NCBI GenBank assembly: GCA_963674595.2
Contig: CAXXFV010000006.1
Coordinates: forward strand, 317,219 to 381,218
Source of the DNA: a bacterium
GTDB taxonomy: Bacteria; Zhuqueibacterota; Zhuqueibacteria; Residuimicrobiales; Krinioviventaceae
Length of the DNA: 64,000 nt
Direction of reading: 5' to 3'
The notes beneath the pieces were generated by a model that did not search any database, was not told the origin of the DNA, and saw nothing but the letters and a program-made list of their open reading frames with translations. Below are positions 3,577-64,000 of this stretch, piece after piece. Every line of letters starts with the position of its first letter. Position 1 is the first letter of the stretch. The translations under genes and the position numbers were made by a program.

Positions 3577-4532
3577 ATGATGAAAGCTTTGATATATGAT
3601 GATAAACTTTTAATTAAAGAAATTCCCAAACCTGAAAGACAAAAGAACCAATCTTTAATTAAAGTGATATTAGCCGGAATTTGCAATACAGATTTGGAAA
3701 TATTAAAGGGCTATATGGCATTTAAAGGCGTATTGGGCCATGAATTTGTCGGTATTGTTGAAGAAAGTGATTCACCATCTCTTATTGGTAAAAGAGTAAT
3801 CGGTGAAATTAACGTTGCCTGTAAGGTTTGTGATTATTGTAGAAAAGGTTTACAACGACATTGTCCTACACGGTCTGTTATTGGTATTGCCGGCCACCAG
3901 GGTGCCTTTGCAGAGTATATTGTTCTACCGGATGATAACATTCATATTATTGATGATGCTATTGCTAATAATGAGGCGGTTTTTACCGAACCCCTGGCTG
4001 CCGCTTTGGAAATTTTAGAACAGATCAAGATTGAACCCGATCATAAAGTTTGCATCATTGGCGATGGAAAATTAGCACTGTTGATTGTACAGGTCCTTTT
4101 ATTAACGGGGGCTGATATTTTAATGATAGGAAAACATACAAAAAATTTGACATTTGCAGAACAACTGGCGCGCGTGTTTATAAATATCCACAAACGCCTG
4201 ACATCAAATATGATATTGTGGTCGAAGCATCCGGCAGCCCTAATGGATTTGATACGGCATTAAACATTATAAAACCACGCGGTATTATGGTATGTAAAAG
4301 TACTTTTCATGAAATGTTAAATTTTAATATCGCTAAAATTATTATAGATGAAATAACACTGGTTGGTTCACGTTGCGGTCTTTTTGCACCTGCACTTCGC
4401 TTGCTAAAAAATAATAAAATATTGGTAGAACCAATTATTTCTGATATTTTTCCTTTTTCTGAATCTGTAGCTGCTTTTGAATATGCTCAGCAAAAGGGAG
4501 TATTAAAAGTACTGCTTGATTTTCAGAAATGA
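3577..4532 (+). CDS. Zn-dependent alcohol dehydrogenase (MDR family); split by one missing G near 4167
   Basis: GICNTD, GHEFVG, structural Zn CxxCxxCx7C and GDGKL. Adding one G gives EQLGARVYKY...YDIVVEASG and joins ORFs 3577..4263 and 4218..4532. Confidence 0.85.
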
Positions 4533-6803: not shown

Positions 6804-8016
6804 TTAAAACGCACTAACTAATCCCAATGTAATTATATTTTTATCATATTCAAGATTTCGTGTATATTCTCCAATAATTCGTAAATTCCTTGCAATGAGA
6901 AAAGTGCTGCTAAATGTGGCGGTTTCATAGTTTTCCAAAGTTTGTGTAAAATTATTATTCTGATCAGATTTGAACTTGATTTTATTATACAGCAGTGTAA
7001 AATAAACCCTGGATCGATCAAGTTTTGGAGAAATAACGGTTTCCAGTATAATTCCATCGCATTCAATGTCTTTGGTAACAGAGTCGAAAAACGGATTTGT
7101 ATCTTTTCGTTTTAAATATTGTCCTGTTACTTCTACAGGTCCAATGCCTATGTTGAAATCCGTTCCCAGGTAGGTTATTTCATTTTTTTCACCTGAACTC
7201 AGGGTTGTGGCCTCTAACTCTTCATTACCTTTGTAATATAACCCGCCAATACTAAAATGTTCACCAATACCCTGGTTTAAACGAAAACCAATGTTTTTTA
7301 TTCGAATCATTATCGAATTTTTTATCATTTCCTGCTTCGTCCTTCCCGTTGCCATTGACCAGCATCCCAACTAAATCAGTGCCTGTTTTTTCAATCCCGT
7401 AAACAACCATTATGCCGCGATCATAAGCAAGATTGGTATTAGAGTGCCCAACACTGGTTTTATAGATCATATAATCTTCAACCGTTAATCGAAGTTCCCG
7501 TTTCATTAAAGGATCAGAGGTTTGAAACTGACCAACCATAATATCAAAATTCGTATCACCAACATTGTCAAAATGAATATAGGCGTCTTCTATACCGGCC
7601 ACTTCACCTCGTTCAGACATATAAAAGTAAAAATAATATCCTATATTTTTGTAAAGTGCGCCTCCGGATAAAAGTTTAATTCCCCAGGGTGTTTGCAGAT
7701 CTTTTTCCACAAACTGGTCCTGCTCATATTGAGCAAAGGCATCAAAACGAACAGCAATCGGAAAGTCTTTATTCAGCCAAAGAAGATCATCTCCGGCCGA
7801 GACATAATTACGTTTGTTTTCTTCCTCTTTAATTATAAAACCATTTCCTGCAAATTCATCTCCATAGGGTTTTAATTTTGGCATCGGTGAATGGCAGGTA
7901 CTGCATGAAATTTTATAACGCCGTGCAAAAGCAGGAATAGCCATGACATTTGCAGCCAAAAAAAGTAATGTCAATAGAGTTGTCAACATTAATGTTAAAT
8001 TTAAATGCTTTTTCAT
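6804..8016 (-). CDS. Cyc2-like monoheme cytochrome c-porin fusion; +1 indel at 7294-7299
   Basis: Signal peptide, then IPAFARRYKISCSTCHSPMPKLKPYGDEFAGNGF, then a beta-strand-rich body ending in Phe. Removing one A gives DSNKNIGFRL and joins ORFs 7261..8016 and 6804..7370. Confidence 0.75.
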
Positions 8017-8029
8017 GGGAAACCTCCAC

Positions 8030-9368
8030 TTAGTCGTAAACTTCTATCCAGGTTGTTGTAGAATTTACCGGAATAATTTCGCTTTCCTCTGCTGGTACAC
8101 CAAGAAAATCGGCAACCGGTTTTACCAATTTTTGAAAGTTCAACTCTGCGTAAAAAGTAACTTTACCCAAAGCAATATCTTCAGGCAGTTGCCAGGTAAA
8201 TGTTTCAATTTTGGTTTCCCTGGGACCAATTCTATAATCCACTCCTAGTGATTTTGTGTTCCATTGCATTATTGTCATAATCCCGGACGGATCAAAATAA
8301 GGCATTCTGAAAATTCGGTCTCCAACAGGAATTCCATCCCGTTCCACTCCTTTGAAATCAGGAATACCTTTGGGTACACCCATATCAATATAAGCTAAAT
8401 CATTGGAGCCGATTGTATATTCTTCTCCATCAAACCCTTTTTTGTCAACAGGAATATGATATTCTTTACCATCAGCATCTTTGGCTGTAACATGCAGCCA
8501 CATGATTCTATCTTCTACTGAACCGGTTGGAATTTTATGGCCGGCCTTGCCATTAAAAAGCTGAACTTTTAACACAACGGTTTCATCATATTCCAGTTCC
8601 CGAATTTGAGGATGCATACGTAATTCGATTGCTCCGGCTACTTTACCCGGATCGTGTGCACCATGAAACAAGTGCTGCGCAACCATGTCTTCTTTTGCCA
8701 TTTTAGCATTTTTACCCATTGCCTTTGGCATGTGACATTGATGGCAGGGAACTCCCTGCTTGGAATAGGGACCTTCCTGCCATTCTAATTGTGTAGATTT
8801 TACCCAGATACCAAACGGATTTTTTTCATTATGACAGTTACCACAAAATTCGGCTGCTTTGTAGATTTCTAAAAATCTGGTTTCATGATGAGGAGAAACA
8901 AGACCCGGTTTTTGCACCATATTTAACCCGGCCCGGCTCGGACATAAAGCTAAAATTAAAAGGAACATCACCTTTATATCCGGTAATTGTGTGGCAAACT
9001 TCGCAGCTTACACTTTCATTTGCACGTGAGTTTTCAGATGGTCGTGGAGGAGTTACATCTCCTGCCATATAGGCCAATGGCGTATGGCACCCGTTACAAC
9101 CGTCAACAGGTCCTTTTAATTCAGGAACCTTTTCAGCATGCGCAACAGCTAAATCAAAATATTCAATTTCATCCCAATGATGCGTGTAAGCTTGAGACAT
9201 CATAGCCTGTGTCCATTGTTGATAGATATCCGTATGGCAGCTTGCACAGGCTTGCGGTTTTTCATATTGATCGTATTTTTTACTGCCTAATGCCTCTTCA
9301 CCAGCAGGATTGCCGTACAGAGAAACAATACAAAGCAAAAGTACCAAAAAACTAGAAATTACCCTCAT
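8030..9368 (-). CDS. Periplasmic multiheme cytochrome c (5 CxxCH); +1 indel at 8909-8913
   Basis: AGGAG RBS, ATG at 9368 and a signal peptide. Heme motifs CASCH, CNGCH, CEVCH, CGNCH and CHQCH. The corrected junction reads YGAKPGLVSPHH. Confidence 0.85.
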
Positions 9369-9407
9369 CACATGTCTCCTTGATAATGACAATTTACACG
9401 TAATTAT

Positions 9408-48222: not shown

Positions 48223-49619
48223 TGTAATGATTCAAGGTAAACTTGAGAAAAGGCATATTTGAAATAAGTTAGTTTTAAGCTGCCTTTATAATTTTATTGT
48301 TTTCCTGCCTTCTTTGGCGGGCTTGTTCAAGTTTCATATCACGTTCTTTGAAAATACTATCAGCTTTTCCGGATAATTTGTCAGACGGAGTAATAAATCC
48401 AATAGCACTATGTAACCTGCTATAGTTGTATTGATGGATATACGCTACGACTTTATTTCTGGCATCCTCCAGGTTGATCATACTTTGAATTCGGGTGCAT
48501 TCATTTTTAATAATTTTATGAAAAGCTTCAATTTTACCATTCGACTGTGGATGATTGATCGAAGTTCGAACGTGTGTTAAATTATTTAACCTTAAAAAAG
48601 ATTTAAAGTCATTGGCAATAAACTGTGAACCATTATCGGAAATAATTCGAGGTTTTTCATTTGGATATTTTTCCAAAGCTCTTTGCAGTACAATCTCGAC
48701 ATCATATTCCTGCATATGAGTTCTTAATTCATGGTGAACAATAAATCTCGAAAATCCGTCCAGTACAGAAATCAAAAAGAGATGCGAACCATGAAAGGCA
48801 ATATAGGAAATATCTATATGCCAATGCTGATGCGGTTTTTTGGGTTGAATAAAGCCTTTCCTTTTTGATTGTAACGTACTGTTATTCCATTGACTTGTAA
48901 GTCCGGCGTTCCGCAGGATACGATAGGTCGTTGACGGGCTCACAGCAACGACATTTTCATCAAGCATCATATAGGTCAGTCGTTTATAGCCGATTTGCAT
49001 ATGTTCTTTTTTGTATTTTATGATACGTTGACACTCCCACGGTTCCAGCCAAAAGCTGCGAGGTGTGTCGCTGTTATGTTGATTTGGTTGACCAAAACGT
49101 TTTTGCCAGTCATAGTACCGGGTCCAGGACAAACCAATGGTCTTGAGTAATAAACTCAAAGGAACACCGGTCTTTGCCGTTAACGTTTGCAGAGAAGACA
49201 AAACATCATCTCTAACATCAGGAGCAACCCATGTCTTTTTCAGGTTGCCCCAAAATACTTTTTTCGCAAATCAACGACCTCTGTGGAGAGTTCGGTGATG
49301 ACTTCCTGCATTTTGCTGACTTTACTTTCAAGACGTTCTTCTTTGACAGATTTTCCTTTACGCTTTTTATGTTTGCCGGAAAAACCGTCAAGCGCATTTT
49401 CAAAGAGCTCTTTTTTCCATCTGTGTATAACTACAGGATGAATATTATATTGTTTAGCTAATTCGGATATGCTGATCTTATTTTCTAAATGTTCTCTTAA
49501 AATTTGGACTTTTTCTTCAGCAGTAAAGCGTCTTCGTTTGCTCATTGGGCCTCCATTTTTCATCATAGACTAATTTAATATTTTTGGCCCTTTTCTCAAG
49601 TTCAAAGATAAGTATTACA
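48223..49619 (-). mobile_element. Complete IS3-family insertion sequence (1397 bp)
   Basis: TG...CA ends, imperfect terminal IRs TGTAAT-N10-RAACTTGAGAAAAGG, a 4-bp target duplication AAAC (48219-48222 and 49620-49623) and orfA/orfB. Confidence 0.92.
48275..49545 (-). CDS. IS3-family transposase OrfAB (orfA 49240..49545; orfB reached by -1 frameshift at A-AAA-AAG, 49258-49264)
   Basis: OrfA HTH (RRRFTAEEK) and OrfB DDE (WHIDISY, SDNGSQF, NGKIE). The -1 frame reads KKVFWGNLKKTWVAPDVRDD straight into orfB. Confidence 0.9.
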
Positions 49620-49875: not shown

Positions 49876-51831
49876 GTGAAAACAATTTCGACCTGTTCTT
49901 TTTGCGGATGCGGTTGTGGAATTATAATTGAATCAGAAAATGATCATGTCATTTCTGTCTCTCCTCAAAAAAATCATCCGGTAAGTCGTGGAACTCTGTG
50001 TATTAAAGGCTGGAATGGACACCAGATTGTGCACCATCCGGATCGGTTAACTACACCCTTGATAAAAGATAAAGATGGATTTAAAAAAGCAAGTTGGGAC
50101 ACTGCTTTTGATTTCATTCTAAATTCCATTCAGGACATTCAAAAAAACAATGGTTCTGATTCTGTAGGTGTTATTGGTTCTCTTCATTGTACAAATGAAG
50201 AGCTATATCTGCTGAACAAGTTGACCAGAACTATTTTAAAAACAAACAATATTGATACGGCAGCCCGTTTATATATGGCCCCTATGTATAATTGTTTTAA
50301 AAATGCCTATAATTGGGCCGGAGCTACGACAGATATTACTGATATAGAACAAACAGATGCTGTTTTAGTTATTGGTGCAAATCCCAAGGTACAGAATGCC
50401 AATGTCGGCTCTTATATACTTCAGGCAGCAAAAAGCGGAAAACGAACAATATTAATTGATTCTCATGAACAGGAATTAAGCCGTTTTTTCACTGTTTATT
50501 TACAGAGTAAACCCAGCTATGAACTTTATATTTTAAACACTCTCATTCACATCATACTAGAAAAAGATCTATATGATCCCTATTGCGAACAGATAAAAAC
50601 CTTACAGCCTCTGGTTGCGGAATTTACACCAGAATTATGTACTGAAAAAACAGGTGTTCCGACAGAAATGTTGTATCGCACGGCTGAATTATTTGCTACG
50701 GCTCCCCGTGCAACTATTTTGTTTGGAACCGGCATCACGCAACAAGCCAAATCTGTTGCGCTTATAAACGCTATTATAAATCTGGCCATTATTACGGGCA
50801 ATATTAATAAAAAAGGCGCCGGTATTTTGCCGTTGCACTATGCAAATAATCTGCAAGGTGCAATCGATATGGGTGCCGCTTCTGATTTATTACCGGGCCA
50901 TCATTCATTTTCAAGTGAAGGTATTGGAAATAATGGATGGCAAAATCTACCTGCCAAAACCGGATTGTCCTTTCAGGAAATGATTGATTCCTGTGGTGAA
51001 AAGATAAAAGCACTTTATGTGGTTGGTGAAAATTTGATGTGGAGTGCACCAAACTCAAATTCAACAGGGGACAAGCTGGATAAACTTGATTTTCTAATTG
51101 TTCAGGATATGTTTTTAAATGAAACGGCCCAAAAAGCAGATGTAGTTTTACCTGCATGCAGTTATACTGAAAAGGAAGGAACCGTAACAAATTTAGAATG
51201 TCGCGTTCAAAAAATTCGCAAGGCAATTCAACCAATCGGTGACAGCCTTTCAGATTTGGATATTATTTCAAAATTTATACAGACATTTACAAAACAAGCA
51301 CAGGAAAATAAACCGGAAAACATTTACAAGGAAATTCAGCAGTATGTGCCTTTTTATCAGGCCGGATATAAAGAACTTGATCCTCCGGGTGGTTTTCTGG
51401 TGCAGGAACGAATCAAGCCGGATGATATCAAGTTGATACCACAGATTCATTCCGAAGAAATGGAAGAACAAGTTGATGAAGAATATCCATTTATATGTGT
51501 TGTTGCAAGAAAATCCTTTCATCGTATTACCGGAACACAGAATATCAGGTCCTTTACTCTGAAGAAAGAGTATGCATCCGGGACTGTAGAAATTAATACC
51601 AATGATGCAAGAGACCTGAAACTACGAAGCGGTTGGAAGATAAAAGTCGTTACCCGTCGCGGAGAAATTATCAGAACAGTTAATGTAACTCATGCAGTCA
51701 AACCGGGAACGATAAACGTGTCCATTCATAATATTGACGGATTGACGCAATCACTTGTTCGCAGTGATTTGGAAAAAGATGCTAAAACACCGATCATGAA
51801 AATTTGTGCTGCCAAATTGGAGAATATTTAA
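49876..51831 (+). CDS. FdhF-like molybdopterin oxidoreductase-family protein lacking catalytic residues
   Basis: N-terminal CSFCGCGC...C 4Fe-4S, NNID..ARL, GITQQ, ADVVLPA and EKEGT. Has RL-Y-M instead of RL-[CU]-H and PL-H-Y instead of PL-R-G. Confidence 0.88.
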   Translation: MKTISTCSFCGCGCGIIIESENDHVISVSPQKNHPVSRGTLCIKGWNGHQIVHHPDRLTTPLIKDKDGFKKASWDTAFDFILNSIQDIQKNNGSDSVGVIGSLHCTNEELYLLNKLTRTILKTNNIDTAARLYMAPMYNCFKNAYNWAGATTDITDIEQTDAVLVIGANPKVQNANVGSYILQAAKSGKRTILIDSHEQELSRFFTVYLQSKPSYELYILNTLIHIILEKDLYDPYCEQIKTLQPLVAEFTPELCTEKTGVPTEMLYRTAELFATAPRATILFGTGITQQAKSVALINAIINLAIITGNINKKGAGILPLHYANNLQGAIDMGAASDLLPGHHSFSSEGIGNNGWQNLPAKTGLSFQEMIDSCGEKIKALYVVGENLMWSAPNSNSTGDKLDKLDFLIVQDMFLNETAQKADVVLPACSYTEKEGTVTNLECRVQKIRKAIQPIGDSLSDLDIISKFIQTFTKQAQENKPENIYKEIQQYVPFYQAGYKELDPPGGFLVQERIKPDDIKLIPQIHSEEMEEQVDEEYPFICVVARKSFHRITGTQNIRSFTLKKEYASGTVEINTNDARDLKLRSGWKIKVVTRRGEIIRTVNVTHAVKPGTINVSIHNIDGLTQSLVRSDLEKDAKTPIMKICAAKLENI

Positions 51832-52934
51832 TGACAATTGGTCAAAAAATAATCCTGTCAAAAGATCAATTATCTCAGTTATTGTCAAAAATACATAAAG
51901 ATAAAAAGCTGATCGGTCCGGTCCGTATGCCGGACGGTGATGTAACGTTTGAAACCATCAAAGATGTCAACGACATTATCTTTGATTATGTAAACGATTA
52001 TGAACCGCTTAAACGTTTTTGGTTTCCGGCTAAGGAGAAACTGTTAGAGTTTGATTTAAATAATAATAAAGAAATTAAAACACCACCGTTGCAAGAACCA
52101 GCCGTGATTTTTGGTATTCGTTCCTGTGACCTGCAAGGATTATTGCATTTTGACCATTTCTTTTCAGGAGCATTCAAGGATAATTATTATTGGGATAAAC
52201 GTGATGCTATTACCGTCATCAGTATGGCCTGTAATACACCGATGGATACCTGCTTTTGTATTTGCTGTGATGGCGGCCCAAGTCTTGAAAAAGGTTTTGA
52301 TTTGCAATTAACGGATTTGGGTGATAATTATCTTGTTGATATCGGCAGTCAAAAGGGGATTGATGTATTAAACCTTTTATCAGCAACTTTTCAATATGCT
52401 GACGAGCAAGAAGAACAAAAACGCCAGCAGTTGATGCAGGCTTGTGATGAAAAAATGGTTAAAACCGCCTATCTGGCAAAGGCAATCATTCAAATAACAA
52501 ATAATCGCATTAACGAAGATTTGCTGGATGAAATGGGAGCCGAATGTTTTAGCTGCGGCGGCTGTACGCATGTATGTCCGATGTGTTCCTGTTTTGATGT
52601 AAACGATGTTATGTGTAGTGAAACCCATGGCGAGCGTTTTCGCTGTTGGGATTCCTGCCAATATTCAGGGTTTACACGGGAAGCTTCAGGACATAATCCC
52701 AGAAACAAAGCCAAAGATCGAATTAAACGCAGATTTTATCATAAATTGAGCTATGCCTATTTAAAACAGGACGGACACCCCGGATGCGTCGGCTGCGGCC
52801 GATGTATAACGGTTTGTCAGGCCCTCAATTTACTTGATATTACCGCCTTTGTAAAAAGACTGCGCAGAGAAGGGCAAACAGATAAAAATCAAAATACACT
52901 GGTAGCAACTCAAGTATCCGGCAGGGAAAATTGA
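51831..52934 (+). CDS. AsrA/HydB (sulfhydrogenase beta)-like 4Fe-4S protein
   Basis: FGIRSCD, CFC, CFSCGGCTHVCPMCSC, RCWDSC and CVGCGRCITVC. TAATG translational coupling. Confidence 0.88.
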   Translation: MTIGQKIILSKDQLSQLLSKIHKDKKLIGPVRMPDGDVTFETIKDVNDIIFDYVNDYEPLKRFWFPAKEKLLEFDLNNNKEIKTPPLQEPAVIFGIRSCDLQGLLHFDHFFSGAFKDNYYWDKRDAITVISMACNTPMDTCFCICCDGGPSLEKGFDLQLTDLGDNYLVDIGSQKGIDVLNLLSATFQYADEQEEQKRQQLMQACDEKMVKTAYLAKAIIQITNNRINEDLLDEMGAECFSCGGCTHVCPMCSCFDVNDVMCSETHGERFRCWDSCQYSGFTREASGHNPRNKAKDRIKRRFYHKLSYAYLKQDGHPGCVGCGRCITVCQALNLLDITAFVKRLRREGQTDKNQNTLVATQVSGREN

Positions 52935-53758
52935 TGGAAAATGTATATTTACCACAACTTGCTGTTATTGAAAACATTGTCCCCGAGACAATTGATACAA
53001 AAACCTTTACGTTACGGTTTGTTGACGAGACATATAATTCAAATTTTAGTTACAAACCGGGACAATTTGTAGAAGCCTCCATTTTGGGTATGGGAGAGGC
53101 ACCCTTTGGATTTTGCTCAAATCCCAATAAAAAGGGTTCCTTTGCCATTACGGTCAGAGCGACCGGTAAAGTAACCAATGCCATGCATGAATTACAAGCC
53201 GGTGATACAATGGGAATACGTGCACCGTTTGGAAATTGTTTTCCAATGGATAATGTTAGAGGCAAGGATATTTTAATCATTGCCGGTGGAATTGGCTTAC
53301 CGCCATTAAAATCACTCATTGAGCCTATTTTGGATGAGCGTGACAGTTTCGGACAGTTTATTATTTTATATGGCGCCAGGACTCCTGAAGATCGTGTATA
53401 TAAACCGATTTTAGAAGAGTGGCAAGCCAGAAAAGATATTGAACTCTATCAAACCGTTGACAAAGCCACTGAAGAATGGAAAGGCCATGTCGGCGTTGTA
53501 ACCACATTATTTGATAAAATAAAAATTGATCCGGCAAAGACTTTTGCATTTACATGCGGTCCGCCGGTCATGATCCGGTTTGTTATTCAGGAGCTTTTAA
53601 CAATGGGTTTTCCTGACGATCATATTATTTCAACCCTTGAACGTTATATGAAATGCGGTATTGGAAAATGCGGTCACTGTGCCATCGGACACAAGTACAT
53701 TTGTGTTGATGGGCCGGTTTTTTCCTATAAACAAATGAAATCATTACCGGAAAAATAG
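52934..53758 (+). CDS. AsrB/HydG (sulfhydrogenase gamma)-like FAD/NAD(P)-binding 2Fe-2S protein
   Basis: PGQF, GEAP, AGGIGL, CGPP and LERYMKCGIGKCGHC...C.DGPVF. Confidence 0.9.
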   Translation: MENVYLPQLAVIENIVPETIDTKTFTLRFVDETYNSNFSYKPGQFVEASILGMGEAPFGFCSNPNKKGSFAITVRATGKVTNAMHELQAGDTMGIRAPFGNCFPMDNVRGKDILIIAGGIGLPPLKSLIEPILDERDSFGQFIILYGARTPEDRVYKPILEEWQARKDIELYQTVDKATEEWKGHVGVVTTLFDKIKIDPAKTFAFTCGPPVMIRFVIQELLTMGFPDDHIISTLERYMKCGIGKCGHCAIGHKYICVDGPVFSYKQMKSLPEK

Positions 53759-53765
53759 AATTTGT

Positions 53766-54251
53766 ATGCAGGAAAACGAATTAAAAACTTTTTTTGCCAA
53801 TAAAAAGATTGTTCTCATGGGCGTTGGAAATACACAACGAGGTGATGACAGTTTCGGGCCTGCACTGGCCACAAAATTGTTAAAACATCCTCACATCAAA
53901 AGTATTGTATGTGAAGAGTTACCGGAGAATTATACGGATGTTGTAAAAAAAGAAAAACCCGCTGTCATTATTTTTGCTGATGTTTTGGATTTTGGCGGCG
54001 AGGCGGGAGAGACGGTATTTTTAAAAGATAAATCCGCATTATCGGACAGATTTTCCTCACATCGGCCGTCGTTAAAATTGGTTATGGATTATCTCGAATA
54101 TGAAACCGGTGCTGAAACAATGATTTTGGGCGTTCAACCTTCTCAAATAGAGTATCAGGAAGAAATGAGCCCACAAATTAAACATTCGATGAATTCTATA
54201 TATGGCTTTTTAAATTCAATAGATTTTTCTGCTTATAAGGAACTCAATTAA
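53766..54251 (+). CDS. hycI: Hydrogenase maturation endopeptidase (HycI-like)
   Basis: GVGNTQRGDDSFG, PENY, D.LDFG, SSH and LGVQP. Confidence 0.85.
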   Translation: MQENELKTFFANKKIVLMGVGNTQRGDDSFGPALATKLLKHPHIKSIVCEELPENYTDVVKKEKPAVIIFADVLDFGGEAGETVFLKDKSALSDRFSSHRPSLKLVMDYLEYETGAETMILGVQPSQIEYQEEMSPQIKHSMNSIYGFLNSIDFSAYKELN

Positions 54252-55708
54252 TGGGAACACTTTTACTACTTTTAATACTCTTTCCGGCATGCGGTGCTGT
54301 TTTTGCCGGCCTTTTACGAAAACGATTTAGTGATCTCATTGCTGTTGTATCGACTGTGGGTATGTTTATCGTTGGTGTTGTTATTATTTTATCGACACCC
54401 CTCTATCGGACTGTCACCAGTTTACCCATTTCGCTTCCCTGGTTGGAAAATGTTGGTGTCAAAGGACTGTTTGGCTATCAGCTTGATCCGTTGGGTTTTA
54501 TTCTTTTGATTGTGGTTATTACACTGGGATTGCTGGTTATTTTATTTGCTACCGGATATCTGAGTCAAAAGAATAAAGAACATCCGTCAACAGAAGGTAA
54601 AGAACGACATCACTTTTGGATGCTGCTTTTTATAGCCTCTATGATTGGTATTGCCATTTCTCCAAATTTTTTACAACTGTATATCTTTTGGGAAATGACA
54701 ACACTTTGTTCATGGGCGCTTATATCTCATTATCGAAATGAAGAATCGTTAAAAGCCGGTTTTAAAGCGTTATTGATGACCTTTTCCGGTGGATTGTTTT
54801 TTGCCATTGCTTTGGTCATTTTATTTGTAAACACAAAGAGTTTTGATTTTTCCGCACTCGGATTGCTGTCACCGAAATTACAAACCTGGATGTTTATTCT
54901 ATTACTCATAGCAGCCTGGGCAAAATCGGCCCAAATCCCATTTTATACATGGCTTCCTGATGCCATGGCCGCACCGACAACTGTTTCCATGTATTTACAT
55001 GCGGCTGCCATGGTTAAAGCCGGTGTATTTCTGATAGCACGAACAGCCGTTGCCAATAGTACGTTATCTTTTGGCAGTGGTTTACTGGTTGGTATTATGG
55101 CTTCGTTGACCATGCTTGTTTCCCTTTTCATGTTCTTTTATCAGGATGACCTGAAACGGCTTTTGGCCTATTCAACCATTGCTCATTTGGCCTATATTCT
55201 GTTTGGTATCGGTATCGGAATAATGGGCTCAAAAACCGCTCTTGCCGGCGGAATTATGCATATTATCAATCACGGAATTGGTAAAGGTTTATTGTTTTTA
55301 TGTGTTGGGGCCATAGCCTATTCAACCGGTACACGGAGCATAAACGCTCTAAGCGGTTTAATAAAAACCGCCCCCATAACCAGTATTGCATTTATTGTCG
55401 GCATGCTGGCTATTTTAGGTGTCCCGCCGTTTTCAGGATTCTGGAGCAAATTTTATCTACTGGTTGGTACGATTGAGTTGGGCGGATTGCCCGGATATCT
55501 GTTGCTGATACCATTTTTACTGGAAATCATTGTTGCCTTTGGCTGGTTTTTACATGTCGGGCATCGTGTCTTTTTCGGACCGGTTTCAGAAGATGCCGCA
55601 CAGGCTTCGCCTTTACCTTTTGTGATGAATTTTGTTTTAATTGTTTTGGTCATATTAACATTAGTTGTGCCATATATCGGTTTAACATTGGTTAAATATT
55701 TGAACTGA
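54251..55708 (+). CDS. Antiporter-like membrane subunit (HyfD/NuoL-like)
   Basis: FWEMTT, KSAQIPFYTWLPDAMAAPTTVSMYLHAAAMVKAG, LKRLLAYST and HGIGKGLLFL. Confidence 0.88.
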   Translation: MGTLLLLLILFPACGAVFAGLLRKRFSDLIAVVSTVGMFIVGVVIILSTPLYRTVTSLPISLPWLENVGVKGLFGYQLDPLGFILLIVVITLGLLVILFATGYLSQKNKEHPSTEGKERHHFWMLLFIASMIGIAISPNFLQLYIFWEMTTLCSWALISHYRNEESLKAGFKALLMTFSGGLFFAIALVILFVNTKSFDFSALGLLSPKLQTWMFILLLIAAWAKSAQIPFYTWLPDAMAAPTTVSMYLHAAAMVKAGVFLIARTAVANSTLSFGSGLLVGIMASLTMLVSLFMFFYQDDLKRLLAYSTIAHLAYILFGIGIGIMGSKTALAGGIMHIINHGIGKGLLFLCVGAIAYSTGTRSINALSGLIKTAPITSIAFIVGMLAILGVPPFSGFWSKFYLLVGTIELGGLPGYLLLIPFLLEIIVAFGWFLHVGHRVFFGPVSEDAAQASPLPFVMNFVLIVLVILTLVVPYIGLTLVKYLN

Positions 55709-55732
55709 GTTATCCTTTAAGGGAGCTGTTTA

Positions 55733-57802
55733 ATGGACCTTGTATTAACATTCGAAATATCTATTCTTATTTTACTCATAGGTTCAGTTATTACTTTTTT
55801 CATGGGTAAACACCGAAAATCTATCGGTTTGATTGCCCTGAGTTTTATGACGCTTGCGGCTGTAGGTATATATTATGTTGTTATAAATGTATTTCTTAAC
55901 GGTCCCGCAGAATCTTTATCGTTATGGACAGTTCCTATTCTTGATTCTTCCCTGGTTTTAAAAATTGATCATCTCAGCGCATTATTCCTTGCCATTATTG
56001 CTTTGGTCAGTGTTCTGGTTTCTCTTTATTCTTTGAAATTTATGAATCTTGAAGATTTTAAAGAGTATAGCCTTAGGGGCTATTATCCGATCTTACTTTT
56101 ATTTTTTGCCGGTGTCATGTGTGTTGTAACCGTAACCGACATGTTTTTCTTTTTCATTTTTTGGGAAGTTATGACAATGGCGTCATACTTTATGGTTATT
56201 TTTCAAAAACGTGAAAAGAAAAATTTACAGGCCGGATTCAAATACTTTTTTATCACACATGTTGCCACGGCTCTTTTATTTATTGCTTCGATTATTTTGT
56301 TTTCCAAAGGCGGATCATTCGCTTTTGATAAAATGAGTGAAACCATGCAGATGATGGCAACACAGCATTCCGGTTTGCTGCATCTGGTATTATTGTTTTT
56401 CTTTCTTGGATTTGCCACCAAAGCCGGTATCCTGCCGATGGGAGACTGGCTGCCGGATGCTTATCCTGCTGCACCGGCTCCTGCCTCCGCTGCATTTGCC
56501 GGAAGCATGACCAAGCTGGGTATTTACGGTATTGTTCGCATTTTTTGTGACATTTTACCTGCTTCTTCATATTCAAACATTTGGGGTATCATTATAGCCA
56601 TCATGGGTACAGTTTCCATTTTTGTCGGTACGGTTACCGCTTTAGTCCAGAATGATTCAAAACGATTGCTTTCATTCCATGTTATCGGGCAGATGGGGTA
56701 TATGTTTTTGGGTATCGGTATTGGTGTGGCTTTTATGGCCACCAATCCTGTTATTGCGATTGTAGCAATAGGCGCCGGTATATTTCACCTGGTTAACCAT
56801 GTCTGTTATAAATCTTGTCTGTTTTTCAATGCCGGTTCAGTTTATTACAAAGTCGGCACACAGGATTTAAATAAAATCGGCGGTCTTTACAGTCTTATGC
56901 CTTTAACAGCCATAACCACAATTATTGCTTCTCTGGCAATTGCCGGTATTCCTCCGTTTAGTGGATTTTCCAGTAAATGGCTGATATACCAGGCTTCCGT
57001 TAAAGCCGGTTTGTCCAATCCTTTGATGATTGCGTTGGGAATTTGTGCATTGTTTATATCCGCTGTAACACTGGCCTCGTTTATAAAATTTTTCAGTTCC
57101 ATGTATTTTGGCAAGTATGCTGATAATAACAGTAATGCGGTTAAAGGTGATGTACCGTTAAGCATGAAAATTCCTCAAATTGTGCTGGCATTTTTGTGTG
57201 TATTTTTTGGTGTTTTGCCTATGTTGCCGATTCATATTGTTTTCAGTGCACTGGAACCGATTTTAAAACAAAATGTGATAACTTTTACAGGATTGTATGG
57301 TGCCGGAACCATGGGTGGAATTACCTTAAATTTTGGTAATGGTGTTTTTGCCGCCTGGAACCCTGTTCTGATTTTAATTGTGGCTTTTATTTGCCTGGCA
57401 ATATCATTTTTCTTTTTCAGAGCAGGTAAAGCGCCAAGACGCCAGGTAGATACATGGTATTGTGGAGAACTTCACGATCCGGAAGAAGTTCGATATGAAG
57501 CACATAACTTTTATTTGCCCTTTAAAAAATTATTTCGGTTAAGAATCGGTCAGTATGAACAGGAGGGAATATATCCCAAAATCACGATTCCTAAATTGTC
57601 TTTAACAAATAAAAACATACTTTACCGATTGGCCCAGATTGATGAATGGTTTTACCAACCGTTGGTAAATAAATTCTTAAAATGTGTCAGGTCGTTTAGC
57701 GCATTGCATTCCGGTATTCCGCATATTTATCTATTGTGGCTTGTATTAGGAGCAATTGCTGCTGTTATTGTTTTATTTACATTATCAGCTAATGGAGTTT
57801 GA
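55733..57802 (+). CDS. Antiporter-like membrane subunit (HyfB/HycC-like)
   Basis: 689 aa with FWEVM, WLPDAYPAAP, KRLLSFH, NHVCYK, PPFSGFSSKW and WYCG. Confidence 0.88.
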   Translation: MDLVLTFEISILILLIGSVITFFMGKHRKSIGLIALSFMTLAAVGIYYVVINVFLNGPAESLSLWTVPILDSSLVLKIDHLSALFLAIIALVSVLVSLYSLKFMNLEDFKEYSLRGYYPILLLFFAGVMCVVTVTDMFFFFIFWEVMTMASYFMVIFQKREKKNLQAGFKYFFITHVATALLFIASIILFSKGGSFAFDKMSETMQMMATQHSGLLHLVLLFFFLGFATKAGILPMGDWLPDAYPAAPAPASAAFAGSMTKLGIYGIVRIFCDILPASSYSNIWGIIIAIMGTVSIFVGTVTALVQNDSKRLLSFHVIGQMGYMFLGIGIGVAFMATNPVIAIVAIGAGIFHLVNHVCYKSCLFFNAGSVYYKVGTQDLNKIGGLYSLMPLTAITTIIASLAIAGIPPFSGFSSKWLIYQASVKAGLSNPLMIALGICALFISAVTLASFIKFFSSMYFGKYADNNSNAVKGDVPLSMKIPQIVLAFLCVFFGVLPMLPIHIVFSALEPILKQNVITFTGLYGAGTMGGITLNFGNGVFAAWNPVLILIVAFICLAISFFFFRAGKAPRRQVDTWYCGELHDPEEVRYEAHNFYLPFKKLFRLRIGQYEQEGIYPKITIPKLSLTNKNILYRLAQIDEWFYQPLVNKFLKCVRSFSALHSGIPHIYLLWLVLGAIAAVIVLFTLSANGV

Positions 57803-57839: not shown

Positions 57840-59519
57840 TTGACATTAAATGAATTAAAATCAAATCTCTATGATAATTTCAAATCCACTATAGAGGAAT
57901 CTTCAATTCCTTGTCCGACGATGCTCCTTGTTACGGTGTCCAGAGAAAACGCCGTTTCTATTATACAACATATATTCCATAAAATTAACGGCCGTTTTGT
58001 TGTTTGTGTCGGGACCGATTATCGTGATGCTGATGGGGATTATCTTGTTGATTATGTTTTTGCTTTTGCACAGGACCATTTATTTTTAACTGTCAGACTT
58101 CCCATCCCGTCCAATGACCTTTGGTTTCATGCTGTAACCGGAGATGCCGATATTCCGGGAGCTAACTGGGCGGAAAGAGAAGTGCAGGATTTATTAGGAA
58201 TTAAATTAAAAAATCATCCGGACCCCCGCAGGCTTGTCTTATCAGATGACTGGCCTGAAAATTTACATCCTTTAAGACGTGATGTTCCTTATGATATACA
58301 TCCGCCGAGCAAACCTGAAAATGCCGTACCGTTAAAAAAGAAACCGGAAGGATCAACGGTTGTTCCAATCGGACCGTTTTTTCCGGTTTTGGAAGAACCT
58401 GCTTATTTCCGATTGTTTGTTGAGGGTGAAAAAGTGGTTGGCGGCGATTACCGTGGTTTTTACAGTCATCGGGGTATCGAAAAAATTGCCGACAGCCAGT
58501 TGAATTATAACCAGGTACCGTTCCTTGCGGAACGTATATGCGGTATATGAGGCTCGGTACACAGTACGGCGTACTGTCAAGCAGTCGAAATGGCGGGGGA
58601 GATTCAGGTACCAAAAAGAGCAGAGTTTATTCGTGTTATTCTATTAGAACTGGAACGCATTCACAGTCATTTGTTATGGCTGGGAATTGCAGGTCATATT
58701 ATTGGATTTGATACGGTGCTTATGCAAGCCTGGCGTGTACGGGAACCGGTCATGTGGCTATGTGAGAAAATTACCGGTAACCGGAAACTGTTGGGAATGA
58801 ACCTTGTCGGGGGCGTTCGGAGAGATGTCCCAAAATCCATACATGAGGAATGTCAACAGGTATTACAAAAAGTAGAGCGCGAAACACAAGCGATTATAAA
58901 CGCTGTTATTGATGACACCACTTTGAAAATGCGTTGTGAAAACGTAGGCATTCTTAAACATTCGGACGTTATTGCCTATTCACTATTGGGACCGACAGCC
59001 AGAGCATCGGGTGTTGCCTGGGACATCCGCGCAGATCATCCCTATGCCGCTTACCCTGAAGTTGGCTGCAATGTTATCGTAGAAACGGGTGAGGATATCT
59101 GGTCCCGGGTTTTAGTACGATTAAAGGAAACACTGGAATCTGTCAGGGAAGTTCGTGATGCATTATCCATGATGCCGGATGGACCAATTATGGCGGATAT
59201 AAGACAACCCATTCCTCCCGGTAAAATCGGTTTATCATCTGTTGAAGCCCCACGTGGTGAAACACATCACTTTGTTATTACCGGTGAGGACAATCGTCCA
59301 TACCGCTGGAAGGCCCGCGCCCCAACGTTTCAAAACCTGCAGGGCATTCCTGTTATGATTGCCGGAGAAACAGTTGCAGATGTTCCCATTGGTTTGGGCA
59401 GCATTGATCCCTGTTTTTCCTGTACGGAACGGCTCGAAACGGTTGATATCAAATCAGGTAAAATCAAAGTTTATTCGAAATCGGAATTGTTTGCACTATC
59501 ACGAAATAAAAACAAATAA
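57840..59519 (+). CDS. Group 4 [NiFe]-hydrogenase large subunit (HycE/HyfG-like NuoC-D fusion, 559 aa) with in-frame TGA at 58548-58550 (putative Sec237)
   Basis: ORFs 57840..58550 and 58590..59519 are in the same frame. The read-through gives ERICGI-(TGA)-GSVHSTAYCQAVE (L1 motif). The L2 motif DPCFSCTER is followed by a cleavable extension. Confidence 0.9.
58551..58582 (+). promoter_or_regulatory. Putative bacterial SECIS hairpin
   Basis: Perfect 7-bp stem ACAGTAC-GGC-GTACTGT with a G-led apical loop beginning 18 nt after the TGA. A lower GCT/AGC pairing is possible. Confidence 0.65.
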
Positions 59520-59530
59520 TTGAAATATGA

Positions 59531-60466
59531 ATGGGAATTGATATTTCTATGGAAATTATTACACATAAAATGATTTTACTCGCGTTGTTCAATTTAACGC
59601 TGGTCATATTTTTATCTCCTTTACTTGAGGGGATTGTTAGAAAAGTGATTGCATTTGTCCATTCCCGAATCGGACCGCCTGTATATCAGCCCTATTTGGA
59701 TATTTTAAAACTGCTGGGTAAGGAAGAAATAGACAGTTCTTCACATATTTTATTTAGGACCAGTGCTGTATTTGCATTTGCTTCTGTGTTGACAACGGCG
59801 GTACTTGTACCGATTGGTGCTATTCCGCCGTTATATGCCGGTGGTGAAATTCTGGTTTTTATGTACATCATTACTTTTTCCGCTATCATGGTCATCATGA
59901 GCGGCGTTACCTCGGCGAGCCCGTTCAGTATAATCGGTGCATCCAGAGAGATGATGATGATTTTAACCGTTGAGCCGGTCATTGTTATTGCTCTCATTAC
60001 CGCCGCAGTTAAAGCAAATTCCATGCAGTTTGGTGATATTATCAATTACCAGGTTCAACATGGAACGTCAATTTCCATGATTATTGTTGGTGTGGTACTC
60101 TTTTTGTCCATTGTCGCACAACTGGCCCGTTTGCCGTTTGATATTGTGGAAGCTGATCAGGAAATTATGGAAGGACCGTTTATCGAGCAAAGCGGGCCCA
60201 AACTGGCGCTTTTTAAATGGACCTTTTATGCCAAGCAGTTTATTTTTGCTTCGCTGTTTGTTTCTATTTTTATTCCATGGCTGCACTCTGGTAACTTTTT
60301 ACTGAATCTGTTATTTACATTCTTAAAAATTCTTGTTTTACTTTTGCTGGTTGGAGTTGTCCACGTTGTTAATCCTCGTTTGCGAATTGATCAAAGCATC
60401 CGTTATTTTTTGATTTTAATTTTCGTAGCATCCATCGGATTGGCATTTGCGCTGATAGGATCATAA
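59531..60466 (+). CDS. HyfC/HycD (NuoH-like) membrane subunit
   Basis: SRIGPPVYQPYLDILKLLGKE, GASRE and RLPFDIVEADQEIMEGP. Confidence 0.9.
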   Translation: MGIDISMEIITHKMILLALFNLTLVIFLSPLLEGIVRKVIAFVHSRIGPPVYQPYLDILKLLGKEEIDSSSHILFRTSAVFAFASVLTTAVLVPIGAIPPLYAGGEILVFMYIITFSAIMVIMSGVTSASPFSIIGASREMMMILTVEPVIVIALITAAVKANSMQFGDIINYQVQHGTSISMIIVGVVLFLSIVAQLARLPFDIVEADQEIMEGPFIEQSGPKLALFKWTFYAKQFIFASLFVSIFIPWLHSGNFLLNLLFTFLKILVLLLLVGVVHVVNPRLRIDQSIRYFLILIFVASIGLAFALIGS

Positions 60467-60488: not shown

Positions 60489-60983
60489 ATGTTCAAATCA
60501 AAAATTAAAGAAGCCATTATCTGTTTTTCAAATCCGAGAGTAACACTTCCATATCCATTCGGAGAAGGTGCTGAGGTTGCTGACGGTTTTCGTGGTAAAC
60601 TTGATATTGATGAACAAAAATGCGTTGGGTGTGGAGGATGCGGTAATGTCTGTCCTTCACGGTGTATCCGGTTTACCGATGATGGTGATAAAACGCGTAT
60701 GGAGTTTATCCTCGACCGGTGCACTTATTGCGGACGATGTGCCGAAGTGTGCCCGGAAGAAGCGATTACAATGACCAAACAGTTCGAAACATCTACAACA
60801 GATAAAACCGATTTGTACATTGAACAGGAAATTTATATGGCTACCTGTGCACGATGCGGAAGATGTTTTGAAACGGAAAATGCCATTGATAAAATTCCGA
60901 CACGCCGACACCGTGCAGGCCGGAATTATGTCGGGCCGTCAATGCCTTTTGGCGCTCCGCCGCTTGAGGAGGACAAGTCATGA
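60489..60983 (+). CDS. HyfH/HycF (NuoI-like) 2x[4Fe-4S] subunit
   Basis: T.PYPF, FRGK, CVGCGGCGNVCP, CTYCGRCAEVCP and an extra CARC. Confidence 0.9.
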   Translation: MFKSKIKEAIICFSNPRVTLPYPFGEGAEVADGFRGKLDIDEQKCVGCGGCGNVCPSRCIRFTDDGDKTRMEFILDRCTYCGRCAEVCPEEAITMTKQFETSTTDKTDLYIEQEIYMATCARCGRCFETENAIDKIPTRRHRAGRNYVGPSMPFGAPPLEEDKS

Positions 60984-61646
60984 CGGAACAAACTTTGATC
61001 ACTTTAACGTTAGGTATTCTTGTCGCTTCTATTGCGGCTGTGGAAATAAGAAACTTGCGCACGACTTGTTTTGCTTATTTAATACATTCTGTTTTTCTAT
61101 GTTGCATTATCATCTGTTATGCTTATCTGAAAGATAATCACAGTTTGTATTTATGGTCGTTGACATGTTTTATTACCAAAGTTGTTATCGTTCCATTTAT
61201 ACTGTTGCGATTTGTTAAAAAAGTGCCGCAAAAAGAACATCAGCCAATTATCGGCGGCGGACTTTCGATTCTTATTGTTACTATCCTGATGGTTGTATTT
61301 TTTCAATTGTTCAAAAAATACATTTACTTTTTAGCGCCGACAGAGGCCGCCCAATTGGAACCGGTCAGGAGTTTACTGGCAGGTGCCTTTACCATTTTTT
61401 CATTAGGACTGTGGGCGTTGCTTACAAGAAGAGATGCCTTAAAAAACCGTTATCGGACTGGCATTGCTTGAAAATGGTGTCCATCTTGTATTATTAGCAC
61501 TGACACCACAATTAAAAGAAACGACAATGATAGGTATTTTAACCAATGTTGTCGGCGTGGTTTTGATTCTTTTATATCTAAGTACGACAATTTACCAGGT
61601 TTTTGGATCCATGGATACAGTTAAACTATCAGAGCTGAAGAGATAA
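60980..61646 (+). CDS. HyfE-like membrane subunit; +1 indel at 61441-61446
   Basis: Hydrophobic protein with TKVVIVP. The corrected junction RRDALKTVIGLALLENGVHL joins 60980..61471 and 61464..61646. Confidence 0.82.
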
Positions 61647-61656
61647 GAGGTTAACT

Positions 61657-63174
61657 ATGGCTGAACCTATTCAGTCTCAATTACCATTGGTATTGATTTT
61701 ACTACCGATTTTTGGTGCAATTTTTACAATTCTGTTCGGTTATTCCAAATTCAAAAATGGCCGAGAAATAAGCACCCTTGTCATTCTGATTATTGAATTC
61801 GTCATTGCAATTCGTGTCGGAATACTGGTTTTTGGCGGACAAACACTAAAAGCTTTAGGCAATGCTATTTTTGTTGATGGTTTAAGCGCTCTCATGATTG
61901 TGCTGGTTGATGGTATGGTGATACTGATTGCGCTGCAATCTATAAAATACATGAGGCACGAGCAGGAAAAAGGAATCGTCAGCGAAGGGCGGTTAACACT
62001 TTATTATGCGCTTATTCTGCTTTTTACCGGTACGATGAACTGGACCGTAAGCACCAATCATATGGTGATGTTATATGTTGCCATGGAAGGGACAACGCTT
62101 GCCACGGCTTTACTGGTCGCTTTTTATCGGAAAAAAGCATCCCTGGAGGCCGGCTATAAATACGTTTTACTGGTCGTCGTCGGTATAACGTTTGCTTTAT
62201 TCGGTATCGTTCTTATCTTTGCAGCGGCATATCCTCATTTAAAAGTAGGTTCTCACGCACTGTTATTGACAGAAATTGGCAAAGTAGTTACACTCATTCC
62301 GAAAAATATTGCTTTGCTTGGTATCGCCTTTATGACCATCGGTTTTGCCACCAAAGCCGGACTTGTACCTTTTCATGCGTGGCTGCCGGATGCTCACTCG
62401 GAAGCGCCGTCACCGATTAGTGCTTTATTATCCGGGTTGATTATAAAAATCGGTGCCTATGCACTGGCACGAACCGTTACAATTTTTGCTCCTACATATC
62501 ATTCCGTCATTATCTTTATTGCCATTCTCAGTTCAGCCAGTATGCTCATTGGAATATTGATGGCTATAGTTCAGGATGATTTAAAACGAATGCTTGCCTT
62601 TTCAAGTGTCAGCCAAATCAGCTATGTATTTGAAGGCCTTGGCCTGGGAACATATTTGGGAATCTATGGCGGGCTGTTTCATCTGGTTAATCATACCATA
62701 ATCAAAGCCCTGCTGTTTATGAGCGTAGGCGCTGTTATGTATGCCACCGGTGGAATGAGGAAAATTTCAGAGCTTGGCGGATTGGCAAAAAAAATGCCGA
62801 TTACTGCATTTTGTTTTATTGTCGGTGCACTTGCAATTGGCGGCCTGCCGCCTTTTAACGGATTTATGAGTAAATTTACCATATTTTTAGCTATTGGTGA
62901 AGAACATATTTATTGGGCCCTTGTTATCTCTATTATTACCGGTGTGCTAACATTGGCTTGTCTTGTATGGGCTGCCTATCGTGTTTTTTGGCAGGCTCCG
63001 GCTAAAAAAACCGAACAATATGACAACATTAAAGAAGTTCCGCCATTAGTTTATATCAGTCTTGTTATTTTAGCCGCTTTATGTATTGTTATCGGTATAT
63101 ATCCGCAAATATTACACCCAATGCTGGACCATGCTACAAATGCTGTACTGGCCATTTGGGCTGCGGGTCAATAA
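61657..63174 (+). CDS. Antiporter-like membrane subunit (HyfF-like)
   Basis: MEGTTLAT, SLEAGYKY, HAWLPDAHSEAPSPISALLSG and LKRMLAFSS. Confidence 0.88.
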   Translation: MAEPIQSQLPLVLILLPIFGAIFTILFGYSKFKNGREISTLVILIIEFVIAIRVGILVFGGQTLKALGNAIFVDGLSALMIVLVDGMVILIALQSIKYMRHEQEKGIVSEGRLTLYYALILLFTGTMNWTVSTNHMVMLYVAMEGTTLATALLVAFYRKKASLEAGYKYVLLVVVGITFALFGIVLIFAAAYPHLKVGSHALLLTEIGKVVTLIPKNIALLGIAFMTIGFATKAGLVPFHAWLPDAHSEAPSPISALLSGLIIKIGAYALARTVTIFAPTYHSVIIFIAILSSASMLIGILMAIVQDDLKRMLAFSSVSQISYVFEGLGLGTYLGIYGGLFHLVNHTIIKALLFMSVGAVMYATGGMRKISELGGLAKKMPITAFCFIVGALAIGGLPPFNGFMSKFTIFLAIGEEHIYWALVISIITGVLTLACLVWAAYRVFWQAPAKKTEQYDNIKEVPPLVYISLVILAALCIVIGIYPQILHPMLDHATNAVLAIWAAGQ

Positions 63175-63195: not shown

Positions 63196-63693
63196 ATGTT
63201 AAAAAAACTATGTGCAAAAGCATTTCCCAAATCTCTTTGGGTATACCACACCAATTGTTCTGCCTGCAATGGTTGTGACATTGAAATTATAAATGTATTA
63301 ACACCTTATTATGATGCAGAACGATTTGGTATAAAATTGGTTGGATCTCCCCGTCATGCCGATGTGCTGTTGGTAACCGGAGGAGTCAGTCGTCAGGTTG
63401 CCCCGTCTGTAAAACGGCTATATGAGGCAACCCCAAATCCTAAACTTGTTTTTGCCATAGGTTCCTGTGCATGTGGCGGCGATGTATTTTACGATAGTTA
63501 TAATATGTACGGCGCTGTAGACAAAGCCATACCGGTTGATTATTATATTCCGGGCTGTCCTCCCAGACCGGAAGCCATTCTATATGGTGTAGCTGTTGCT
63601 CTGGGGCTTGCACCGAAACAGGTTGAAAAAAAGATTAAAAATGATTTTCCTTTATCTGAACAAATCGACGTACCAATGTTTAATGAATTATAA
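63196..63693 (+). CDS. Hydrogenase small subunit (HyfI/HycG, NuoB-like)
   Basis: CNGCDIE, SPRHAD, GSCACGG and IPGCPPRP. Confidence 0.92.
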   Translation: MLKKLCAKAFPKSLWVYHTNCSACNGCDIEIINVLTPYYDAERFGIKLVGSPRHADVLLVTGGVSRQVAPSVKRLYEATPNPKLVFAIGSCACGGDVFYDSYNMYGAVDKAIPVDYYIPGCPPRPEAILYGVAVALGLAPKQVEKKIKNDFPLSEQIDVPMFNEL

Positions 63694-63753: not shown

Positions 63754-63841
63754 ATTGCGTCATATAGAACAAATTATTAACTTAATTATACAGTTTTGCG
63801 GGTATTTGACTAAATTTTTCATTATCCAAAGGCCTTTGGTT

Positions 63842-64000
63842 ATGCCTGTTGTCCAAACTATTCAAGACAGGTGCAGGAGGTGTTACTCGTGTGTGCGCCA
63901 TTGCCCATCCAAAGCTATACGTATTGAACATGGGCAGGCAATGGTTATCCAGGAAAGGTGTATCGGCTGCGGCAGATGTGTTAAAGTATGTTCCCAAAAG
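63842..64000 (+). CDS. 2x[4Fe-4S] N-terminus of a protein resembling sensory [FeFe]-hydrogenase (HydS-like) regulators; 3'-truncated, absent from ORF track
   Basis: MPVVQTIQDRCRRCYSCVRHCPSKAIRIEHGQAMVIQERCIGCGRCVKVCSQK..., open to the window end. Confidence 0.7.
   Translation, partial: MPVVQTIQDRCRRCYSCVRHCPSKAIRIEHGQAMVIQERCIGCGRCVKVCSQK

Follow-up and report, generated by a model that had tools for sequence, protein, structure and literature searches.

A Group 4b-like hydrogenase gene of the KSB1 lineage with an in-frame UGA, predicted to encode selenocysteine, in its N-terminal motif

Introduction

In [NiFe] hydrogenases, the second cysteine of each CxxC pair is a bridging ligand. To our knowledge, all characterised natural [NiFeSe] hydrogenases carry their selenium on a terminal nickel ligand. 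Here we describe a gene for the large subunit of a Group 4 hydrogenase in which a single in-frame TGA occupies the codon for the second cysteine of the N-terminal motif. The gene lies in a 64,000-nucleotide stretch of bacterial DNA (GenBank assembly GCA_963674595.2, contig CAXXFV010000006.1, positions 317,219 to 381,218), hereafter the window, in which positions are counted from the first letter. We consider it highly likely, from the sequence comparisons presented below, that this UGA, codon 237, is decoded as selenocysteine (Sec, U). The organism very probably belongs to the KSB1 phylum.

The closest described enzymes are the Group 4b CXXU-type [NiFeSe] hydrogenases, published from in silico work on 3 September 2026 (Takano, Inoue, Aono, Ochi and Mihara, Front Microbiol 2026, PMC13582414; this and the other papers below are cited from the accessible parts of their texts). 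That study, which spans nine phyla including KSB1, counts 47 Group 4 large subunits with Sec; 27 are CXXU, and 46 of the 47 were recovered only through read-through. Sec in the N-terminal CXXU motif is predicted there to bridge Ni and Fe, and Group 4b shows a mosaic of Sec and Cys types. About half of the Group 4b clusters include a formate dehydrogenase (Fdh)-like subunit without the Mo ligand, alongside homologues of the beta and gamma subunits of sulfhydrogenase I (SHI); bifurcation or confurcation was raised from AlphaFold models. An N-terminal CXXU is also on record for two Group 1 sequences and one Group 3 sequence (Baltazar et al. 2011, as cited in PMC13582414).

The window gene and its cluster resemble these CXXU enzymes in having the predicted Sec at the second N-terminal Cys only, with an all-Cys C-terminal motif; in a predicted Sec insertion sequence (SECIS) whose loop G ends a Thr codon, ACG; in HyfE- and HyfC-like subunits, several antiporter-like subunits and ferredoxins; and in an Fdh-like subunit without the Mo ligand, sulfhydrogenase beta/gamma homologues and selABCD. 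They differ in nothing of kind. The window enzyme is very likely a KSB1-lineage member of the published CXXU-type Group 4b [NiFeSe] hydrogenases, a kind already described in silico. The original prediction, made from the window's sequence, had offered a Group 4 enzyme with Sec at this position as one not known to have been characterised. In the biochemical sense that statement holds; as a genome description it does not, and the claim of novelty falls, N-terminal Sec types of Group 4, including CXXU and KSB1, being already in print (PMC13582414). Our literature search for earlier reports found Sec in Group 4 described in that paper only; a May 2026 review of selenoproteomes names, in its accessible part, only Frh and Mvh/Vhu-type hydrogenases (PMC13188914), and PMC11291895 deals with VhuU.

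Three better-known systems bear on the comparison. The canonical [NiFeSe] hydrogenases of Groups 1 and 3 (Desulfomicrobium baculatum, D. vulgaris Hys, Methanococcus Vhu/Fru) are like the window gene in that one UGA-encoded Sec replaces one of the four Ni-ligating cysteines. Their Sec is found in the C-terminal motif, where it replaces the first (terminal) Cys, whereas the corresponding window codon, 525, is TGT and the predicted Sec is N-terminal, a contrast that the original prediction had drawn correctly. In the engineered Escherichia coli Hyd-1 variant C79U, Sec was put in place of C79, the second member of the N-terminal pair C76-x-x-C79 (Evans et al., PNAS 2021, PMC8020662), a position that, judged by motif order, appears equivalent to U237. 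This variant kept 13% of native H2 oxidation, the best of four Sec variants; its KM for H2 was lower, and at 10% O2 it showed almost no activity. Unlike the window enzyme, it is a Group 1 uptake hydrogenase with Sec inserted artificially at UAG by EF-Tu. Finally, HycE of E. coli Hyd-3 (PDB 7z0s/7z0t, Group 4a) shares with the window gene the fused NuoC/NuoD architecture and both Ni-binding motifs, and the two clusters have in common an Fdh-type subunit together with genes of the HycD, HycF, HycG and HycI kinds. All four ligands of HycE are Cys, unlike those of the window product with its U237, and the window cluster departs from the HycE system in having three antiporter-like subunits, a beta/gamma NAD(P) module and an Fdh-like subunit without the Sec/Cys ligand. 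HycE-like genes of Vibrio and Photobacterium are only 37-38% identical to the window gene.

Results

The large-subunit gene was read in one frame from a TTG at 57840, with GGAGG located 8 nt upstream, to a TAA at 59517-59519. The only in-frame stop in between is the TGA at 58548-58550, codon 237, in the context ...ERICGI-U-GSVHSTAYCQAVE... The features of the gene are as follows.

57840..59519, + strand: large (catalytic) subunit of a Group 4 HycE/HyfG-like [NiFe(Se)] hydrogenase (Pfam, alignment to HycE)
58539..58541, + strand: codon TGC, Cys of the N-terminal motif three codons before the UGA (TGC in 18/18 rows of the KSB1 clade)
58548..58550, + strand: predicted selenocysteine codon (UGA, codon 237) in the place of the N-terminal motif's second Cys (CXXU)
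58561..58577, + strand: predicted SECIS upper stem-loop (invariant stem, fixed synonymous sites)
59412..59423, + strand: C-terminal Ni-binding motif C525-F-S-C528 (both Cys are TGT, 59412-59414 and 59421-59423)

Read through, the product has 559 aa and is a fusion of NuoC-like and NuoD-like parts, with Pfam matches to Complex1_30kDa, NiFeSe_Hases (the N-terminal part of the family) and Complex1_49kDa. A search of the large subunit against NCBIfam gave no equivalog over its cut-off; NF033181 and NF045518 matched residues 194-280 only, far under their cut-offs. The best solved relative is E. coli HycE, formate hydrogenlyase subunit 5 (7z0s_E, E = 5.5e-128, residues 24-555), followed by the alpha subunit of Pyrococcus furiosus Mbh (6cfw_L, E = 8.5e-75). 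The N-terminal motif R-x-C-G-x-C-x-x-x-H is present as R-I-C-G-I-U-G-S-V-H and aligns to R-V-C-G-I-C-G-F-A-H of HycE, so that U237 pairs with the second Cys of the C-G-I-C in 7z0s_E. At the other end, DPCFSCTER aligns with D-P-C-Y-S-C-T-D-R; Arg531 is followed by a 28-aa tail that resembles those of large subunits cut by a HycI-type protease, and cleavage would be expected by this likeness. Under translation table 11 the gene becomes two open reading frames (ORFs), 57840-58550 (236 aa) and 58590-59519 (309 aa). On all of these points the original prediction was borne out: it had named a Group 4 large subunit, to which the NuoB-like small subunit and membrane subunits of the cluster also attest, with one in-frame TGA at the second Cys of the N-terminal motif, an all-Cys C-terminal motif and a perfect hairpin with a G-led loop starting 11 nt after the TGA (58561-58577), and had warned that gene callers would split it.

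The TGA is widely conserved. In 41 related genomes, each orthologue at 64-76% identity has exactly one in-frame TGA, and the TGA column is identical in all 18 related loci that hold the region. In a survey of 167 genomes of the phylum, an orthologue (threshold E <= 1e-120) was present in 32. Exactly one in-frame TGA occurs in 29 of these (67-100% identity, six taxonomic families) and none in the remaining three (one family, 53-55% identity); genome G031, where the TGA lies in a fragmented gene below the threshold, stands outside the 29. With 29 species-level genomes carrying the TGA, against 27 CXXU sequences in all of PMC13582414, the KSB1 clade exceeds the published sampling.

The two N-terminal codons were also read among 62 loci from the genome collection. 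CXXU was found in the KSB1 clade and in locus L069, UXXU in seven rows and UXXC in one (L071). Twelve Cys-type (CXXC) relatives of the same family have TGC or TGT at the U237 column, and the Group 4a rows (Vibrio, Photobacterium, Campylobacter and a Rhizobiales metagenome-assembled genome) are CXXC. This mosaic of Sec and Cys types among the relatives is the pattern reported for Group 4b in PMC13582414. A maximum-likelihood tree was computed from 41 rows aligned over >500 residues; partial rows (L040, L041, L042, L077, L084, L085, L106), NuoD-like rows (L043-L053), non-hydrogenase rows (L107-L115) and 12 exact duplicates were excluded, and only three Group 4a rows (L090, L093, L103) were kept. 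The 18 KSB1 CXXU rows form one clade (100/100), to which two Cys-type Armatimonadota rows are sister (88/90); the window gene, beside L025, has the longest branch of the clade (0.28). The contig accession prefix of another row, L075, is JAPLJL01, the name of a phylum listed as UXXU Group 4b in PMC13582414. The UXXC combination is reported there for Group 4e only. In L071 (positions 3685-3750, contig MGQB01000001.1) the first Cys codon is TGA and the second TGT, with the same hairpin; this row is sister (100/100) to two UXXU rows, in the 4b-like clade. Either an assembly variant or a natural UXXU-to-CXXC intermediate could explain it.

A bacterial SECIS is a stem-loop that sits shortly after the UGA. 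In the window, ACAGTAC (58561-58567), GGC (58568-58570) and GTACTGT (58571-58577) form a perfect 7-bp stem that begins at the 11th base after the TGA; alternatively, the hairpin can be read with 6 conserved base pairs around a loop of 5 nt (C-G-G-C-G). In the loop, the conserved G (58568) is the third base of the Thr codon ACG (58566-58568), and the SECIS rule places a G at the first or second loop position (PMC13582414). The 27 Sec-type rows yielded 23 distinct 66-nt stretches for comparison: 23/23, across several phyla, share the same six base pairs, ACAGUA/UACUGU, and have G as the second base of the 5-nt loop. Because invariance alone is uninformative, a contrast at synonymous sites was used instead. 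In the 18 KSB1-clade rows there is no synonymous variation at codons +4, +5, +6, +8 and +9 (H, S, T, Y, C). Among 39 comparison codons between -20 and +39, each for an invariant, degenerate amino acid, the same holds for only two (5/5 vs 2/39, Fisher p = 1.9e-5). The ACG that supplies the loop G occurs in 18/18 rows of the KSB1 clade and 27/27 Sec-type rows, but in only 1/12 Cys-type rows. With synonymous sites fixed and the loop G tied to Sec types, it is only alongside the UGA that the hairpin is maintained as nucleotide sequence. The two single-codon exceptions among the 39 are Cys at -3 (TGC) and Ile at -1; the latter is ATA (58545-58547), directly before the UGA, in 18/18 clade rows despite the synonymous Ile codons. 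Fixed ATA at -1 and TGC at -3 may reflect a constraint on the context upstream of the UGA.

The genome encodes the machinery that Sec insertion would use, with selB (354 bits), selA (574 bits), selD (389 bits) and tRNA-Sec (65.9 bits) all over curated cut-offs. SelD (L010, G000:C4:13190-14113) is a selenoprotein too, its gene carrying a TGA at the canonical site (...C-A-G-U-A-A-K-L). In the genome, which is 97.6% complete, a PF00374 profile search detected the window gene as the only [NiFe] large subunit. The maturation genes hypF and hypD are intact; a TAA flagged in the hypD match is that gene's own stop codon, and a disruption was rejected.

The gene stands within a hydrogenase cluster whose genes are all on the + strand.

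49876..51831, + strand: Fdh-like molybdopterin subunit (Pfam, NCBIfam matches)
51804..52934, + strand: Fe-S subunit like sulfhydrogenase I beta (HydB)/AsrA (NF040833, E = 2.5e-51, below the curated cut-off)
52931..53758, + strand: FAD/NAD(P)-binding subunit like sulfhydrogenase gamma/AsrB (NF006220, E = 8.6e-79, below the curated cut-off)
53766..54251, + strand: HycI-type hydrogenase maturation protease (TIGR00072, 84.6 bits, over cut-off)
54251..57802, + strand: two antiporter-like membrane subunits, 54251-55708 and 55733-57802 (Proton_antipo_M)
59531..60466, + strand: NuoH/HycD/HyfC-like membrane subunit (PF00146)
60489..60983, + strand: 2x[4Fe-4S] ferredoxin-like subunit in the HycF position (Fer4 families)
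60980..61646, + strand: HyfE-like membrane subunit in two frames, 60980-61471 and 61464-61646 (NF008556 matches both pieces)
61657..63174, + strand: third antiporter-like membrane subunit
63196..63693, + strand: NuoB-like hydrogenase small subunit (NF005012, 143.7 bits, over cut-off)
63755..64000, + strand: start of a 4Fe-4S ferredoxin-type gene that continues past the window end

The Fdh-like subunit has Y-M at the Sec/Cys-His site of the Mo ligand ('arlYMap' against 'arlXHsa' in the alignment to 9t1s_L); judged from this site, its product is probably not a formate dehydrogenase. Its N-terminal 4Fe-4S Cys motif is retained. The break in the hyfE-like gene adjoins an A7 run (61441-61447), and the gene has a single frame in 7/7 orthologous loci examined; the break may come from misassembly of the homopolymer or be a genuine frameshift. 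The original prediction had put every other broken gene of the window down to an indel in a base run, and this agrees for the hyfE-like gene, the one gene checked. Other overlapping ORF pairs, maybe frameshifted genes, were seen on the - strand at 6804-9392 (6804-7370/7261-8016 and 8030-8971/8883-9392) and on the + strand at 1822-3550 (1822-2577/2507-3550); among them only 8883-9392 (multihaem cytochrome c) and 2507-3550 (FlgD_ig) match Pfam. An IS3-type transposase (rve integrase core) lies on the - strand at 48275-49201, just upstream of the hydrogenase cluster. With a GC content of 0.395-0.41, the cluster differs too little from the rest of the window (0.33-0.40) to argue transfer, and that argument was rejected.

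Discussion

Decoding of codon 237 as Sec has to be weighed against three other accounts of the same TGA. One is that TGA stands in error for TGT or TGC, and the assembly does contain at least one frameshift next to a homopolymer. The site itself, however, is outside any base run, and Logan contigs from 4 runs of 4 studies span it with the TGA unchanged and without indels; the pieces covering it show 0, 4, 12 and 19 other differences, and the contig with none may be the source of the assembly itself. Since KSB1 orthologues in other assemblies carry the TGA as well, we regard an error as extremely improbable. Another account takes the UGA at face value, as a terminator that leaves either a pseudogene or two polypeptides of 236 aa and 309 aa. 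Table 11 yields exactly those two ORFs, and the hyfE-like gene would be a second operon gene broken in this assembly. Against this, 29 genomes with orthologues at 67-100% identity retain the TGA, and a split would cost a metal ligand along with residues 237-250. In comparisons with five orthologues, differences after the UGA are concentrated at third codon positions, as they are upstream; between L025 and the window, 321 codons differ at 75, 36 and 202 sites in positions 1, 2 and 3, with 147 synonymous vs 72 amino-acid changes. By this substitution pattern, the part after the UGA evolves as coding sequence, in the same frame and under purifying selection. The ATG of the downstream ORF is Met in the window only, its orthologues having K, Q or S, and hyp genes persist in a genome where no other [NiFe] large subunit was detected. 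Termination is in our view highly improbable.

The third account accepts read-through but has the UGA read as cysteine, by a tRNA-ReC/selC*-type tRNA or a mischarged tRNA-Sec, or as another residue, giving in the former case an ordinary all-Cys [NiFe] enzyme. UGA is possibly read as Cys in genomes with tRNA-ReC, which PMC13582414 gives as a limit of work from sequence; that paper finds tRNA-ReC frequent in UXXU genomes (~56%) but rare in the remaining Sec-type genomes (~2.3%). Among the 46 tRNAs that ARAGORN found in the present genome are one tRNA-SeC (anticodon tca) and one ordinary 74-nt tRNA-Cys (gca), and no long ReC-like tRNA; sub-threshold RF01852 matches are ordinary tRNAs such as Leu, Ser, Tyr, Trp and Gly. 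ReC-like tRNA was thus not found by ARAGORN or RF01852, although unusual tRNAs can evade both programs. Reassignment of TGA across the genome was rejected because TGA ends 7 of the 37 long ORFs of the window, which shows the organism to use the standard code. Decoding as Cys or another residue seems to us very unlikely.

Several points nevertheless weigh against the Sec reading and its placement in Group 4b, and they are best considered together. Support for Sec at 237 is at the level of sequence, and from it we infer actual insertion. The codons of the hairpin specify a conserved peptide (H-S-T-x-Y-C), and the hairpin's conservation is therefore in part protein-level. Among the 23 Sec-type stretches, covariation was found at 0/10 predicted pairs, with no compensatory change, and the 71-nt stretch folds no better than shuffled sequence (z = +0.46, 132/200 shuffles equal or better), for which reason folding energy was rejected as support for a SECIS. 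The window genome (G000) is the sole carrier of the gene among 19 genomes of its family, which fits either acquisition within the order or loss elsewhere. The break in the hyfE-like gene, if real, could impair the complex in this strain. Lastly, the assignment to subgroup 4b would follow from the clade with L075 (100/100 vs the 4a outgroup) and the cluster description, not from HydDB. The checks that the original prediction had named came out in its favour for the TGA itself (retained in the spanning contigs, and at the same column in 18/18 loci and 29/32 orthologue genomes), for selA, selB, selC and selD, and for the conservation of the hairpin, which has an invariant stem and fixed synonymous sites although neither covariation nor unusual stability.

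If codon 237 is read as Sec, the proposed order of events is as follows: the short hairpin 11 nt downstream of the UGA would act as a SECIS and recruit SelB with Sec-tRNA(Sec), yielding a full-length 559-aa large subunit whose active site would hold one selenolate and three thiolates. The enzyme would supply the hydrogenase module to a membrane-bound Group 4b complex like Hyf/formate hydrogenlyase, formed with the three antiporter-like and the HyfC-, HyfE-, HycF- and HycG-like subunits and served by the HycI protease. The Fdh-like subunit without Mo ligand and the NAD(P)-linked beta/gamma module would also belong to it. The bridging geometry, the composition of the complex and its substrate are all matters that we infer from homology and gene content. 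It is possible, though on balance doubtful, that the complex is not a formate hydrogenlyase and that the hydrogenase forms the H2 arm of an ion-translocating membrane enzyme that is linked to NAD(P)H and may be electron-confurcating. This idea arises because the Fdh-like subunit has lost its Sec/Cys-His pair, the beta/gamma module is present and no second [NiFe] large subunit was detected.

Relative to the published description of the CXXU type, the present analysis adds a synonymous-site test as RNA-level evidence for the SECIS; an instance in a near-complete genome (97.6%) that has the complete set of sel and hyp genes and in which a further [NiFe] hydrogenase was not detected; a KSB1 clade of 29 genomes; and a UXXC row (L071) in a 4b-like clade. 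The gene also illustrates a standing annotation problem, as table 11 splits it in two. So far, the engineered Hyd-1 C79U alone bears on selenium in the bridging position (PMC8020662). A natural selenium atom in the Ni-Fe bridge of an energy-converting Group 4 hydrogenase would reveal the role of selenium there, in catalytic bias, H2 affinity and response to O2. Were the NAD(P)H-linked reading true, a bridging selenolate, fixed across the KSB1 clade of 29 genomes, would tune the site for that chemistry.

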